Source: a virus (lineage: Duplodnaviria > Heunggongvirae > Uroviricota > Caudoviricetes). From it: DNA of 6,715 bases. Shown piece after piece: positions 1-6,602 of the stretch. The notes under the pieces were generated by a model. That model searched no databases, had not been told where the DNA came from, and saw nothing but the letters and a program-made list of their open reading frames with translations. The stretch lies in IMG/VR virus record IMGVR_UViG_2711768053_000010; one strand, given 5' to 3'. A program made the translations under genes and the position numbers. Position 1 is the first letter of the stretch, and each line of letters begins with the position of its first letter.

Positions 1-119
1 TTGTTTTGTTGATGTGATCCTTTCGTGATCGTTTTTCGTCTCGCGTAAAGTATGAAAACTCTTTTAATATCATGCGGTTTTATTGCTCCTGCCATTTGTG
101 CGATCGTAAAAACCACTCT

Positions 120-225
120 GAAAACTGCAAAAAATTTCAAAGCGTGAAATTTCAGATCTTCGCTTTTCCCTCAGTCGCTGCGCGGGCTGGCGGTCATTTT
201 TGCACGGCAGAAAACTGAAAAACTG
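120..225. repeat. Recurrent GAAAACTG motif in the non-coding flank
   Basis: GAAAACTG at 120-127 and 210-217, GAAAAACTG at 217-225, and GAAAACT at 54-60. Also a perfect 10-bp palindrome TGAAATTTCA at 145-154, preceded by a second AAATTTCA at 132-139. Confidence 0.4.
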
Positions 226-264
226 TTTCGACACAAAACCCGCGGGTTGGAGGGGGTAGCGCGG

Positions 265-308
265 TTTACGTCACCTCACGCTTTACGTCACACCGTTTAC
301 GTGGTGTG
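265..308. repeat. Three direct repeats of TTTACGT(C/G), the third inside a CACACC/GGTGTG inverted repeat
   Basis: TTTACGTCAC at 265-274 and 282-291, TTTACGTGGT at 296-305. CACACC (289-294) and GGTGTG (303-308) are reverse complements flanking the third copy. Read directly from the sequence in non-coding DNA. Confidence 0.5.
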
Positions 309-425
309 CGCATACAGCGCCGGAATGGCACGCAGAACGCATTAATCAGGTGGCAGATATGAAACCGCACGGCCTGAACCGTGCGTTGCGTGATGGGGCG
401 TTTATGTGGATTTTATGCCCGGTGA

Positions 426-2123
426 TCAGGCGATAAGGTCGCCGTATTTTTCGCGCAGGCTCGTAGCCTGTTGGGCGTCTGCGGCAAGTTCGCTGCTGTT
501 TGTTGGTGCGCCAGTGTTGCTGTGGGTGTGGTTTGCAGTGTGTGTGGCCAGCAACTGAACCAGATCCAGAATATCAATCAACAACGTCAGCAGATTAAGC
601 CCGGATTTTTCCCGTGAGCCACCGCGACCGATAAATACAGTCGGGGCGGTAAATTCCAGGCCGCCGTCCGCCCGGCATGTTCTGCGGCCTCCCACGTTTT
701 CGGTGAGGTTATGTTCGATGGTGGATGTCGCCCCTTTGAGTTTAGTCAGCAAATCCTGCGCTACCATCTGGATATGCTCACTGGCTGCGATCGCGTAATG
801 GCCGGTAGTAAGGTGCTCTATTTGTCCTGCCATTAGCTTGCTGGTTCCCAGAACGCTGGTTATATCGTTTGCCTGTACTGTGGTTGTTCTGGTTGTTGTT
901 GTGCGTTCCTCCTGATCGCTGTTAATGGTTCGCCGGGCTGAATGTTCTCTGATTTGCTGGTCGGTTTCTCTGTGCCAGCTCCCGTCAGTCGTGACACGCT
1001 GAAACACTTCTGCGCGCTGTTGTTGCAATTGTTCGCCGGGCTTTACATCAGGCAGGTTATGGCCAGCGGGTAAGATTTGCCTGATAACAGGCTTATCCGG
1101 GCGTCCTTCAATGTTGGATATTTCCACGATGGTGCCTGCTGGCGGGTAGGCAAAACATCCCGCCTCACTGCCAGCCATGGGGACGGGGAGGGGTACTGCC
1201 GGGTAAACAGGCGTATCGTTTTTATCGTTGCCGTTCTCATCAAGCAACTGCACATCGACGGCGTAGCGTGGGCGGAAGCTGTCGGCTACATCGCCCAGGG
1301 TGACGGATTCCGTTGGGGCAATGACGCGCGCCAGCCGGGTATGTAGCGTACCGCTGGCCAGTTCCGGGAACTGTGTTTCCATTTGTCTGCGTAATGGTGA
1401 TTTGGAAACAGGGCTACCCGTGGCGGTAAGGCGCTCCCATGTCAGGGTCATTTTCTCGTTGTTGAGGGCTACACGGGTAATGCGCCCGGCCGGAAGGTTC
1501 ACGCCCGGTCGCACAGTTTCCATAAACATGATGTCGATGCTGTTTCCGCCGCTTTGCCCGAGTGTGTACTGTTGCGGAATATCCGGCATTGTAATACTGG
1601 CAAATCGTGAATCAGCTGCGCTTCCCACAAATACAGAACCGTCCGGCATTGGATGCCAGACGTAATCGCTGATACTGAATGCTCGCCCCAGTTGGCTGAG
1701 CAGTTGTGCTCCGCTGCCGCTGTGGGTGATGTAGGGAGTTGGTGTGCTGGCGTAATCCGCATCTGGCGTGATGAAAACGATGCCGCTTTGTTTACCCAGA
1801 TTATCGAGTACCCCCCGCAACGTCGGGTGTTGCATGGAGCAGGGGAAATCAAAATCCAGCACAGCAGCTGCTTCGCGGATAAAAAGGCGACGTGAGCCAT
1901 TTTCAGCAGGTTGATCGCGCTCAATGTAGCCGGAGAAATAGCGCCATGCTTCACCGTCACGGCCGAGATCAATTTGTACCATTGCGCCGGCAAGGGTGTG
2001 TTCGGGTGACAGATTGTTAACAGAAATGAAGCCACGACCGGCAGCATTCAGGGTAAGAACAAGGCTTATATCGGCAATTTCCACCCGTTCGCCATTAATC
2101 ATGCAGCGTTGTATCAATTTCAT
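426..2123 (-). CDS. Baseplate hub / central spike fusion protein (gp27/gpD-like N-terminal domain plus gp5/gpV-like OB-fold and His-rich apex; VgrG-like)
   Basis: 565-aa ORF. Residues about 311-358 (PLPVPMAGSEAGCFAYPPAGTIVEISNIEGRPDKPVIRQILPAGHNLP) match the gp5/VgrG OB-fold signature (P-x-G-x-V-x-V-x-F-x-EG-x-PD-x-P-I ... N-x-P). The C-terminal LLATHTANHTHSNTGAPTNSS resembles the His-x-His apex of P2 gpV (...LHTHKHPGDSGGTTGSPL, from memory). The N-terminal 270 aa follow the general hub-domain pattern (YFSGYIERDQPAENGSRRLFIREAAAVL; SGAQLLSQLGRAFSISDYVWHPMPDGSVFVG). The ORF itself is near-certain; the product assignment is moderate. Confidence 0.6.
   Translation of the reverse strand: MKLIQRCMINGERVEIADISLVLTLNAAGRGFISVNNLSPEHTLAGAMVQIDLGRDGEAWRYFSGYIERDQPAENGSRRLFIREAAAVLDFDFPCSMQHPTLRGVLDNLGKQSGIVFITPDADYASTPTPYITHSGSGAQLLSQLGRAFSISDYVWHPMPDGSVFVGSAADSRFASITMPDIPQQYTLGQSGGNSIDIMFMETVRPGVNLPAGRITRVALNNEKMTLTWERLTATGSPVSKSPLRRQMETQFPELASGTLHTRLARVIAPTESVTLGDVADSFRPRYAVDVQLLDENGNDKNDTPVYPAVPLPVPMAGSEAGCFAYPPAGTIVEISNIEGRPDKPVIRQILPAGHNLPDVKPGEQLQQQRAEVFQRVTTDGSWHRETDQQIREHSARRTINSDQEERTTTTRTTTVQANDITSVLGTSKLMAGQIEHLTTGHYAIAASEHIQMVAQDLLTKLKGATSTIEHNLTENVGGRRTCRADGGLEFTAPTVFIGRGGSREKSGLNLLTLLIDILDLVQLLATHTANHTHSNTGAPTNSSELAADAQQATSLREKYGDLIA
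429..451 (+). terminator. Weak hairpin plus T-run on the plus strand, overlapping the 3' end of the hub-spike gene
   Basis: GGCGA (429-433), loop TAAGG, TCGCC (439-443), then GTATTTTT (444-451). The stem is only 5 bp. It could terminate a rightward transcript from the 1-425 flank, convergent with the tail operon. Confidence 0.25.
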
Positions 2124-2695
2124 GTTTTCCCTTCCTCTTTCACGCTCCCGATGCCAACAGCATCCAGACCAGAGCCAACGGCATCATTGATTTTTTTCCA
2201 GAACGAACTTTGCGTATTCATGCCTTTGTCTGGTGCCTGTTCGCTGCCATTCTGGGTCTGCTGTCTGGCGATGGTTTTCTGCGAACCGCTGCGTGCGGAT
2301 GCTTTCTCTGGCACGCTTAATTTTTCCCTGAGAGTAAAGGTGATCTGCCAGTGCATTTTTCCCTGTTGTTCCGTGGCATCAATGCCACCAGAAAATACCC
2401 CCTGTCGCATATTGATTGCCTTCGCGGTAGCGTTAGCAATGCGATATGTTTTTTTAGCACCGTTGCTTTCTGTTGCCTCCGCAAGCTGAAAAATACGGGT
2501 CAGAATAGCTTCATCGTTAAAATCAATAACCCCCGACACGCGCAGCTCTTTAGCCTTGTTTCCCTGCTGGGCGCTCGTGGTGCTGGTTGACTGTCCGGAC
2601 ATATCTTTGTCCGGTAGTTGCATGGTGGCGCTGACGGTGATGTTGCGCAGCAGAATGGCTTCTCCGTCAAGCGCAAGGACAATCATCTGGGTCAT
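2120..2695 (-). CDS. Hypothetical protein (191 aa), possibly baseplate-associated
   Basis: ORF with an AAGGGAAG Shine-Dalgarno-like sequence 8-12 nt upstream of its ATG. It overlaps the 237-aa ORF by 29 nt and its stop overlaps the start of the hub-spike gene (ATGA at 2120-2123). No confident motif. Any link to baseplate tube-initiator or LysM-type proteins (P2 gpU/gpX class), which usually sit just upstream of hub genes, is positional inference only. Confidence 0.5.
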   Translation of the reverse strand: MTQMIVLALDGEAILLRNITVSATMQLPDKDMSGQSTSTTSAQQGNKAKELRVSGVIDFNDEAILTRIFQLAEATESNGAKKTYRIANATAKAINMRQGVFSGGIDATEQQGKMHWQITFTLREKLSVPEKASARSGSQKTIARQQTQNGSEQAPDKGMNTQSSFWKKINDAVGSGLDAVGIGSVKEEGKT

Positions 2696-3380
2696 GTAGT
2701 GCTTCCCTTAGTGATGAGAGATTATCGCCGACGAACAGCATCACAGCTGTAAAAACCCACTCGGGGTGTGGGATGTTTTTTTGTATCAGCACTGCAGCTT
2801 GGCTAAGGGCTCCTTTGTAGCAAAAGCGCCACACCGGGCAAAATTTTTGCCGGAGTGCGGCCTGCTGATTAGCTATTTCCTGTAAGGCTTTATCTCTCGC
2901 ATTCATGAACTGATGCAGTGATGATGACAATGTTTCCGGTGATGTAGCGGCAGGAGTGGCTGCCTGTGCAATGGTTGCCGCCAGCGACATGCTGCGAGTG
3001 GTCTGTGTCGACAGCATTATCGGTTCCGGAAGTGATGTTGCCGGTCTGGCGGGGATTTGCATTCTGCTGATGGCCAGTGAAAGCTGGCTGGAGATCATGC
3101 GGGACATTCGTCCCACCTCCGGCAACGGAAATGCGCCTGAAAATTGCCTGGCGAGTGATAAAAACTCGCCAGCAGAAGGAGCGCAAAATAACAGCGCCAC
3201 AATGTCCTTTTCCGTGTTTTCTTTCAGATAGGGTAAAAGTGCAGATACAGCATTTTCGGGGCTGAGATAACGCCCCGATGGTTTGATGTTTCCGGTATTT
3301 TCTGACCATGGATGAAGGCAAACCACAGAGCATTTAATGTTCATGGCTGACGGGCGCAGAATTGCGTTTTCCCATTTCAT
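2667..3380 (-). CDS. Hypothetical protein (237 aa), function unknown
   Basis: Long ORF whose ATG overlaps the stop of the upstream chaperone in an ATGA arrangement (3377-3380). The N-terminal 90 aa look globular; the middle is S/T/A/P/Q-rich (PARPATSLPEPIMLSTQTTRSMSLAATIAQAATPAATSPETLSSS) followed by a short helical-looking stretch (ARDKALQEIANQQAALRQKF). I recognise no family motif. Confidence is reduced because a hairpin with flanking A/T runs (2751-2782) and a near-palindrome (2835-2853) lie inside its 3' third. Confidence 0.45.
   Translation of the reverse strand: MKWENAILRPSAMNIKCSVVCLHPWSENTGNIKPSGRYLSPENAVSALLPYLKENTEKDIVALLFCAPSAGEFLSLARQFSGAFPLPEVGRMSRMISSQLSLAISRMQIPARPATSLPEPIMLSTQTTRSMSLAATIAQAATPAATSPETLSSSLHQFMNARDKALQEIANQQAALRQKFCPVWRFCYKGALSQAAVLIQKNIPHPEWVFTAVMLFVGDNLSSLREALHDPDDCPCA
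2751..2782. terminator. Terminator-like hairpin flanked by A5 and T7, embedded in the 237-aa ORF
   Basis: AAAAA (2751-2755), then CCCAC (2756-2760), loop TCGGGGT, GTGGG (2768-2772), then AT and TTTTTTT (2776-2782). The symmetric A and T runs mean it could terminate on either strand. It lies 55-85 nt upstream of the 191-aa start codon and encodes QKNIPHPEWVF of the 237-aa ORF. Confidence 0.3.
2835..2853. promoter_or_regulatory. Near-perfect 19-bp palindrome CGGGCAAAA-T-TTTTGCCGG
   Basis: Read from the sequence: arms GCAAAA / TTTTGC around T2844, extended by flanking CGG/CCG with one mismatch. Operator-like dyad symmetry, located inside the 237-aa ORF about 140 nt upstream of the 191-aa start. 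Function not demonstrated. Confidence 0.2.
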
Positions 3381-3958
3381 TCTGACTCTCCAGCCTGAAA
3401 AGCGCGGATGTCGGCAAGATTATTCAGGCTATCCAGCACGTCCTTCATCTGTCGCTGACGTCGATAAATTTCATCATTGCGGTTAACCTGCGCCTGCGCC
3501 ATTGCTGTCGCCAGTTCTTCCAGTTCCGGCATTGACAGTTTCACCTGTTGATTATCGGCATCACCCCACGCAAGGGTGGTTCGTGCCGTATCGGATTTCG
3601 CCGCCATTACTACCGGATAAAGACGGGCCATTGAGTCGGGGCCGGCGTTCCAGGTGTGACCGTTCCATTCGAACATGAACGGTTGCGCTTCCTGTTCTGT
3701 GCGCCACGCCTCGATTTCTCGTTTTTTAGCGTCCTTTGCTGCTGCGATAAGTTCAGGCGTGACGGTGAACGGGGCGATTTCACCCCATTTGCCGCTCTGT
3801 AACTCCTCCCAGATGCGCTGGCCTGTCGGTGCGGTATCATCCTGCATGGCGGTATACAGGACGAATTCCGTTTCACCTTCAAATAACACCTCGCAGTCAA
3901 CCGCGCCATTTTCAAGATAATGCGCGTTTCTGATGCCTTTTACCGCTCTGATTCTCAT
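3377..3958 (-). CDS. Tail fibre assembly chaperone, DUF4376-like
   Basis: 193-aa ORF immediately downstream of the 690-aa fibre, with a GGGGA Shine-Dalgarno-like sequence about 8 nt upstream. The segment FMFEWNGHTWNAGPDSMARLYPVVMAAKSDTARTTLAWGDADNQQVKLSMPELEELATAMAQAQVNRNDEIYRRQRQMKDVLDSLNNLADIRAFQ fits my recollection of the DUF4376 pattern (FEW-GH-W ... W-DADN ... EL ... RQR-MK ... DIR) found in fibre chaperones. It is a different family from the Tfa at 6051-6602. Confidence 0.7.
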   Translation of the reverse strand: MRIRAVKGIRNAHYLENGAVDCEVLFEGETEFVLYTAMQDDTAPTGQRIWEELQSGKWGEIAPFTVTPELIAAAKDAKKREIEAWRTEQEAQPFMFEWNGHTWNAGPDSMARLYPVVMAAKSDTARTTLAWGDADNQQVKLSMPELEELATAMAQAQVNRNDEIYRRQRQMKDVLDSLNNLADIRAFQAGESE

Positions 3959-6050: not shown

Positions 6051-6602
6051 TTAATTCTCGCTAATGTTCTGCGGTAATTCTGGCCATACAATCGCGGCAT
6101 ACGATGCTTTATCTGTAGCCTGGCTGAATGTCATCTCCCGTAACGTTTTTGTATAAATACGGCAGGCTTTCAGTTTTTCCCTGTCTTCGTCGCTGATTAA
6201 TCCCAGCAGCAGGTCTTTTTCCCATTCGCTGGTCATGATGCTGGCCTGTTTTAACAGTGCATCACGCTCATCTTCCGCTTTAAGTTTGTAGTCGAAGATA
6301 AAATTGCCATCGCGGTAAAACCAGTAACCAGGCACGGTAATACGGCGATTAGCGGTAATATCCGGAACTTCAATAACACTGGCATTACGGGGTTCAATGC
6401 CTGTCACATCCTTACCGACCCACACCACGCGCCCGTCCCCGGTGTAAACCATTTTTATTGTGTCGCTGGCAAAGTTCTTCTGTTCTTCATACCAGTTTTT
6501 GTCGTCTTCCGAAAAAAGCCAGGTGACACCATATTGTTTTGTCAGCTGATATTGTTCCGCGGTTTTCGGATTACCCGCAGTAATATTTTTTAAATGTAAC
6601 AT
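6051..6602 (-). CDS. Tail fibre assembly protein (Tfa / P2 gpG-like chaperone)
   Basis: 183-aa ORF directly after the fibre C-terminus. Its C-terminal segment ...ISDEDREKLKACRIYTKTLREMTFSQATDKASYAAIVWPELP follows the Tfa-family pattern (lambda Tfa: ...[36 protein letters not shown], from memory), including the terminal W-P-x-x-P. A hand count of line 6241-6300 gives about 43% GC, more AT-rich than most of the window. Confidence 0.8.
   Translation of the reverse strand: MLHLKNITAGNPKTAEQYQLTKQYGVTWLFSEDDKNWYEEQKNFASDTIKMVYTGDGRVVWVGKDVTGIEPRNASVIEVPDITANRRITVPGYWFYRDGNFIFDYKLKAEDERDALLKQASIMTSEWEKDLLLGLISDEDREKLKACRIYTKTLREMTFSQATDKASYAAIVWPELPQNISEN

Follow-up and report, generated by a model that had tools for sequence, protein, structure and literature searches.

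We examined a 6,715-nt stretch of viral DNA (IMG/VR record IMGVR_UViG_2711768053_000010; the whole stretch is called the window hereafter) with six genes, all on the minus strand, and conclude that the last of these, an open reading frame (ORF) for a protein of 565 amino acids (aa), supplies, as one polypeptide, the entire central spike complex of a contractile tail of HP1 type, a reading to which we assign a probability of roughly 85%. The ORF is a genuine gene. Its ATG overlaps the stop codon of the upstream gene (ATGA) and lies behind a strong Shine-Dalgarno-like sequence, AGAGGAAGGG, and it is not an assembly artefact, since the protein recurs in many Escherichia coli assemblies, where a 98% identical cluster has 956 members.

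An AlphaFold2 model was generated for the monomer (predicted local distance difference test score, pLDDT, 84). The top whole-chain matches retrieved for this model by Foldseek were the hub and spike chains of AlgoCIS, of the Anabaena and Streptomyces contractile injection systems (CIS), of Pvc8 and Afp8, and of VgrGs from type VI secretion systems (T6SS). These fused hub-spike chains from extracellular CIS (eCIS) and T6SS matched at E 1.6e-19 to 1e-15, and because Foldseek ranks them first, the presence of a VgrG-like hub and spike in one polypeptide, as proposed in an initial annotation of this DNA made from the sequence alone, is supported. By structure, the protein has both the hub fold and an OB-fold followed by a beta-helix, with the region presumed to form the beta-helix (aa 353-505) being extended and non-helical in the monomer model. 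The likeness to VgrG holds for structure but not for the VgrG sequence family, whose TIGRFAM cut-offs are missed.

Profile searches, which the initial annotation had put forward as a check, gave a mixed outcome. A profile built from 94 relatives matched VgrG1, VgrS and the T4 gp5 beta-helix in the PDB (E 2e-4 to 2e-3, covering aa ~290-480), whereas the Phage_GPD model did not match the 565-aa protein and the Phage_base_V and VgrG models scored below cut-off. A Pfam scan of the family, run on 60 relatives, returned weak Phage_base_V matches in 51 of them at E up to 0.05 (the best at 4.1e-5), Gp5_trimer_C matches in 18 and Gp5_C matches in six. The T-rich run EERTTTTRTTTVQ (aa 405-417, window 873-911) had been described as a low-complexity linker between the OB-fold and the apex. 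In the family alignment it lines up column by column, alternating positions being conserved and the Thr positions variable, and it falls within the stretch that aligns to the VgrG/gp5 beta-helix; the run is strand material of the beta-helix and not a linker.

The protein belongs to a known family and is ordinary within it. It matches PHROG 2258 ('baseplate protein') over its full length (E 1.5e-235, aa 1-565 against profile positions 1-544 of 544), and a tblastn search matched HP1 orf35, K139 orf39 and ESSI-2 gp01, which fall in the same 533-566 aa class and are 38-48% identical to it full-length, 48% being the maximum for any deposited phage. It is thus named here as the orthologue of HP1 orf35 (UniProt P51739; PHROG 2258). 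These homologues have the same helix-HxH-helix C-terminus, whereas local T-rich strands and an additional, non-conserved His at position 528 set the E. coli version apart. RefSeq labels the protein 'hypothetical protein' in the E. coli genomes examined, and the database names of some relatives include 'Gp5/Vgr OB-fold domain-containing protein', 'baseplate assembly protein V', 'VgrG' and 'Gp5/Type VI secretion system Vgr protein OB-fold'.

The genomic context is likewise conserved. Prophages in several complete E. coli genomes match the window at 92-93% identity, and the A36 genome of E. coli shows the element in full, with a P2-type capsid and terminase module, gpR, gpS, sheath (DUF2586), tube (HP1 Orf24 family), lysis genes, chaperone, tape measure, a gpW-like DUF2590 protein, gpJ, gpI and two fibre/chaperone pairs, followed by the 237-, 191- and 565-aa genes and then host DNA (hok, serS). 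The comparison with a complete relative that had been suggested thereby places the sheath, tube and wedge genes upstream in the element, and a related complete prophage yielded no further gene for a hub or a spike. Since this gene order is common to A36, Haemophilus phage HP1 (orf33-orf34-orf35), Vibrio phage K139 (orf37-39) and Cronobacter phage ESSI-2, the element is an HP1-subgroup member of Peduoviridae, an E. coli prophage. In the window and in all four of these the gene is the last late gene, directly behind the HP1_ORF34 homologue, which in the three phages, as in the window, is accompanied by the orf33 homologue. The terminal position in the block follows from a hairpin beyond the stop codon (Table 1) and from the adjoining non-phage DNA in A36, and K139 has its terminator T39 annotated at the place equivalent to the hairpin. 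The earlier description of a terminal gene downstream of the fibre pairs is therefore right as to its being last, but the gene does not follow the fibre pairs directly, as the 237-aa and 191-aa genes lie between.

The initial annotation had also pointed to an apex with clustered histidines (THTANHTH, aa 527-534; the HTH lies at window 522-530). Two of the three histidines stand up well, H532 and H534 being invariant in 94 relatives, while H528 is His in only 12 of the 94. In 40 diverse C-termini, from fused proteins and stand-alone spikes, H532 and H534 are the sole invariant columns. In P2 gpV, three HxH motifs make an octahedral cage around an Fe ion, and it has been proposed that an HxH near the C-terminus marks a spike equipped with an apex of its own, for which a PAAR-type tip protein is unnecessary (10.1101/2023.02.25.529910, PMC12407873). 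As the motif is conserved here and lies 31 residues from the end, the 565-aa protein has an apex by this published criterion (10.1101/2023.02.25.529910). In the monomer model the tip consists of a 21-residue Leu-rich helix ending at the HxH, a Gly/Pro loop and an amphipathic helix (pLDDT 79-86). A profile of the C-terminal 60 residues found no homologue in the PDB, the best match being the Lpp coiled coil at E ~1, which we take as chance. Of 14 long representatives, 10 have an HxH within the last 70 residues, as do 63 of 76 that are spike-sized, and the helix-HxH-helix tip is common to fused and split forms.

The tip could belong to a distinct apex class, a suggestion we offer tentatively and hold to be somewhat short of even odds: a trimeric helical-hairpin bundle with the HxH cage at its turn, as opposed to the small beta-structured Apex of gpV. 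This bundle would be the usual tip of HP1-subgroup spikes and would, in the fused lineages, share one chain with hub and spike. Going by the monomer model, the Leu-rich helix would be central in such a bundle and the amphipathic helix would return along it. The helical HxH tip and the union of hub, spike and tip in one chain are the less-charted part of this system. To our knowledge, hub, spike and tip in one chain would make the most condensed spike complex known in any contractile injection system.

A minority of representatives have a different, Cys/His-containing end. The spikes of the Vibrio phages PV94 (L007 1477-3117) and yong1 (L010 1486-3036) lack the HxH and have such an ending, with the motifs ...GDCICAYTGKPH... 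and ...CPFTGGGH...TVFAGK, and in both an additional 65-aa gene follows the spike. The Cys/His ending was also seen in two fused representatives (P0312 and P0313), and it may be an alternative tip solution.

Several results weigh against the reading of the 565-aa protein as a complete hub, spike and tip. On the protein itself, Phage_base_V aligned to aa 310-347 with 15.8 bits against a cut-off of 23.8 (E 0.019), the VgrG TIGRFAMs failed by ~100 bits or more (TIGR01646, 19.6 against 121.8; TIGR03361, 16.1 against 186.35), and Phage_GPD matched neither the protein nor any of the 60 relatives. P2 has no significant sequence similarity to the family: hhalign of the family against the single P2 gpD sequence gave a non-significant E of 0.23, and comparisons with the single gpV and gpU sequences were likewise not significant. 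A phmmer search of the PDB sequences with the single 565-aa protein returned noise only. Since sequence kinship to P2 could not be demonstrated by hhalign, the case rests on structure. Within the model, aa 460-510 have a pLDDT of only 49-68. Pfam GpV Apex (PF18946) did not match the C-terminal 65 aa at E up to 10, whereas P2 gpV, used as a control, matched at 5.9e-4; among the relatives, one of 60 matched (0.0026). The tip is helical in the model and extends 31 residues past the HxH, unlike gpV, in which 12 follow. Under laboratory conditions P2 can do without its apex, which makes it uncertain how much functional weight the HxH carries. The analysis itself shows the folds of hub, OB-fold and beta-helix, the invariance of the HxH, the synteny and the lack of other hub or spike genes, while trimerisation, metal binding, the helical shape of the tip and the role in piercing are inferred.

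We searched 1.84 billion cluster representatives and found 984 relatives. Among the best 150 of the 984 were 12 fused full-length proteins, 27 stand-alone hubs (223-244 aa) and 76 stand-alone spikes, the last starting at profile positions 236-245. PHROG 4011 is a spike-only family and aligns to aa 243-559 of the 565-aa protein, and SMHB1, PV94 and yong1 have a hub gene and a spike gene that share 10 nt exactly at the place corresponding to aa 231-242 (RLTATGSPVSKS). For most relatives, then, two overlapping genes for hub and spike are the arrangement found. Because relatives are split at this same junction and hubs and spikes occur alone, the fusion is a lineage-specific joining of two adjacent genes, found in the HP1, K139 and enterobacterial lineages. 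The split HP1-subgroup relatives (SMHB1 gp48 and gp49, C5a, phi3, ACA1 gp48 and gp49) have a homologous hub of ~228 aa and a spike of 243-323 aa with the same HxH tip, and differ in that two genes overlap by ~10 nt and in that several have much shorter beta-helices.

Both the fused architecture and the H-T-H motif have been published. The supplement of PMC10612066 (2023) relates ACA1 gp48 to gpD and the N-terminal half of HP1 orf35, and ACA1 gp49 to gpV (3QR8) and the C-terminal half, thus putting the gpD and gpV fusion of HP1 on record, and its mass spectrometry of virions detected ACA1 gp48, gp49 and the orf33 homologue. The H-T-H iron-binding motif of the Smhb1 spike was remarked on in PMC8537503 (2021). 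We would like to note that a hub ORF (~229-233 aa) is present in C5a (L008 1483-2172) and phi3 (L009 1501-2200) while being absent from the deposited annotations; for C5a, this unannotated ORF was remarked on in the PMC10612066 supplement.

The split relatives raise the question of whether the 565-aa protein is a precursor that is cleaved at aa 231-242 during assembly, leaving a mature particle with separate hub and spike. Most relatives encode the two separately and are split exactly there, and T4 gp5 is generally known to be processed during assembly; against this, no protease motif or cleavage evidence was found, VgrG, Afp8 and Pvc8 function as uncut fusions according to their structures, and the junction is confidently modelled (pLDDT 88-91), so that we regard cleavage as improbable. 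We think it slightly less probable again that the protein is a hub extended at its C-terminus by a Tal-like part that serves chiefly for receptor binding or membrane action rather than for piercing; the C-terminal helices would then be a trimerisation or membrane-insertion element, and the HxH would do no more than hold the chains in register, as it does in tail fibres. Against this reading, it is dedicated spikes that the OB-fold and beta-helix resemble, the HxH is placed close to the C-terminus just as it is in spikes that bear an apex, Pfam, PHROG and TIGRFAM scans of the protein detected neither an enzymatic nor a receptor-binding domain, and the phage already has two fibres with chaperones.

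Two further readings are rejected on fold and synteny, and we give each very little credence. A bacterial T6SS or eCIS VgrG merely adjoining prophage DNA would account for VgrG, Afp8 and Pvc8 being the best structural matches and for the VgrG-type names of some relatives, but the gene is surrounded by a complete P2/HP1-type prophage that has capsid, terminase, sheath and tube genes, and not by a T6SS neighbourhood, is found at the equivalent position in the sequenced phages HP1, K139 and ESSI-2, misses the TIGRFAM cut-offs, and encodes a ~230-aa hub that is much shorter than that of VgrG. A tail fibre or tailspike unrelated to gp27/gp5 could be suspected from the 'tail spike' annotation of the C5a homologue (C5a_47) and from the gene's position after the fibre genes, but fold searches return hubs and central spikes and no fibres or depolymerases, the gene is paired with a tube-initiator-like gene, and no fibre or pectate-lyase-type Pfam match was found.

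If the 565-aa protein is indeed the central spike complex, three chains would, by homology, form a trimer in which the three copies of aa 1-230 make the hub ring. This ring would adapt the six-fold tube to the three-fold spike via the 191-aa tube-initiator-like protein encoded upstream, and the gpJ-, gpI- and gpW-like wedges would assemble around it. The OB-fold (aa 243-352) would seat the spike beneath the hub, aa 353-505 would form the intertwined beta-helical needle, and in the tip (aa 506-565) the three H532-x-H534 motifs may provide a six-histidine cage for a metal ion, which is Fe in P2 gpV. When the sheath contracts, the needle would be pushed through the outer membrane by the tube. The gene would then be equivalent to P2 gpD plus gpV (spike and tip), or to Mu gp44 plus gp45, in one chain, and its place at the end of the late operon would correspond to the P2 order T-U-D.

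P2 gpD and gpV have the same hub, OB-fold and beta-helix folds and come from the same virus family, and an HTH lies near the C-terminus in both systems (LHTHKHPG in P2, NHTHSNTG here). The initial annotation had held that the P2 hub gene lies away from or upstream of the fibre genes. This is incorrect, as D is the last late gene of P2 (FI-FII-E-T-U-D), downstream of the fibre genes, and the terminal place seen here matches U-D. P2 differs, however, in having two genes in two operons instead of one chain and a hub of 387 aa instead of ~230. In the present element W-J-I-H-G separate T from the U-like gene, and hub and spike are joined. Mu gp44 (hub) and gp45 (spike), with the MuSo2 43 kDa protein, are also among the closest known systems; in Mu the two are separate adjacent genes, with 13-15% identity. 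T6SS VgrG and the eCIS proteins Afp8, Pvc8 and Alg8 likewise carry hub, OB-fold and beta-helix in one polypeptide, but these spikes have a blunt end that receives a PAAR-type tip as a separate protein, whereas the 565-aa protein has an HxH tip of its own and a shorter hub, and is part of a virion and not of a secretion system.

General understanding of contractile tails is unchanged by this result, which gives a firm function to a protein left as hypothetical in E. coli genomes. With it the small HP1-type tail has a complete parts list, in which three terminal genes would supply the tube initiator and the whole hub-spike-tip. Because fused and split forms share one break point, the family offers a handy natural comparison for finding out if assembly or firing depends on hub and spike being covalently linked, and the helical HxH tip would be a reasonable small target for structural work.

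Table 1. Genes of the window, parts of the 565-aa protein and the adjoining hairpin, in window coordinates.
Feature	Position	Strand	Basis or remark
Tail-fibre assembly protein	6602..6051	-	Caudo_TAP
Fibre, 690 aa	6044..3972	-	Tail-collar N-terminus
DUF4376 protein	3958..3377	-	
237-aa protein, HP1 orf33-like	3380..2667	-	PHROG 1677 and 31292
191-aa protein	2695..2120	-	Pfam HP1_ORF34, E 1e-53
565-aa hub-spike-apex ORF	2123..426	-	Stop codon 426-428; ORF list, PHROG 2258, tblastn
Hub domain, aa 1-230, short version of the gp27/gpD/Mu gp44 fold	1434..2123	-	
Fusion junction, aa 231-242	1398..1433	-	Stop and overlapping start of relatives fall here
Spike N-terminal part, gp5/gpV-type OB-fold, ~aa 243-352	1068..1397	-	
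Presumed intertwined triple beta-helix, ~aa 353-505, including the T-rich run	609..1067	-	Profile alignments, Gp5 Pfam matches in relatives, model
Tip module, aa 506-565: Leu-rich helix 511-531, H532-T-H534, loop, amphipathic helix 543-561	429..608	-	Model, conservation
Terminator-like hairpin ending the late operon	385..366	-	Consensus scan; ~40 nt past the stop of the 565-aa gene

The 191-aa protein has a tube fold and is probably a tube initiator or ripcord, which would sit on the hub; its orf34 homologue was tentatively assigned to gpU in the PMC10612066 supplement. It gave no meaningful match against PDB sequences, and literature searches for HP1_ORF34 (PF25759), and for Hpunavirus together with VgrG, returned nothing. 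The 237-aa protein has no Pfam match, and its single match in the PDB (NDUEG3, E 2.9e-4) covers only 39 residues and is not meaningful. Two spectra of its ACA1 homologue were recorded in virions (PMC10612066 supplement). At the corresponding place PV94 has no homologue of this size annotated, and SMHB1 has a shorter unassigned ORF.

Window 1-425, past the last late gene, is non-coding and contains the hairpin. If HP1 is a guide, the prophage end or cos region presumably lies here, beside hok and serS in E. coli A36.

The 690-aa fibre was found to contain an internal duplication, with aa ~160-288 resembling aa ~429-552. A blastp self-comparison missed this repeat, which was revealed by a Smith-Waterman comparison (score 242, against 31 +/- 5 for shuffled sequences), and a distal-type domain therefore occurs twice along the fibre.
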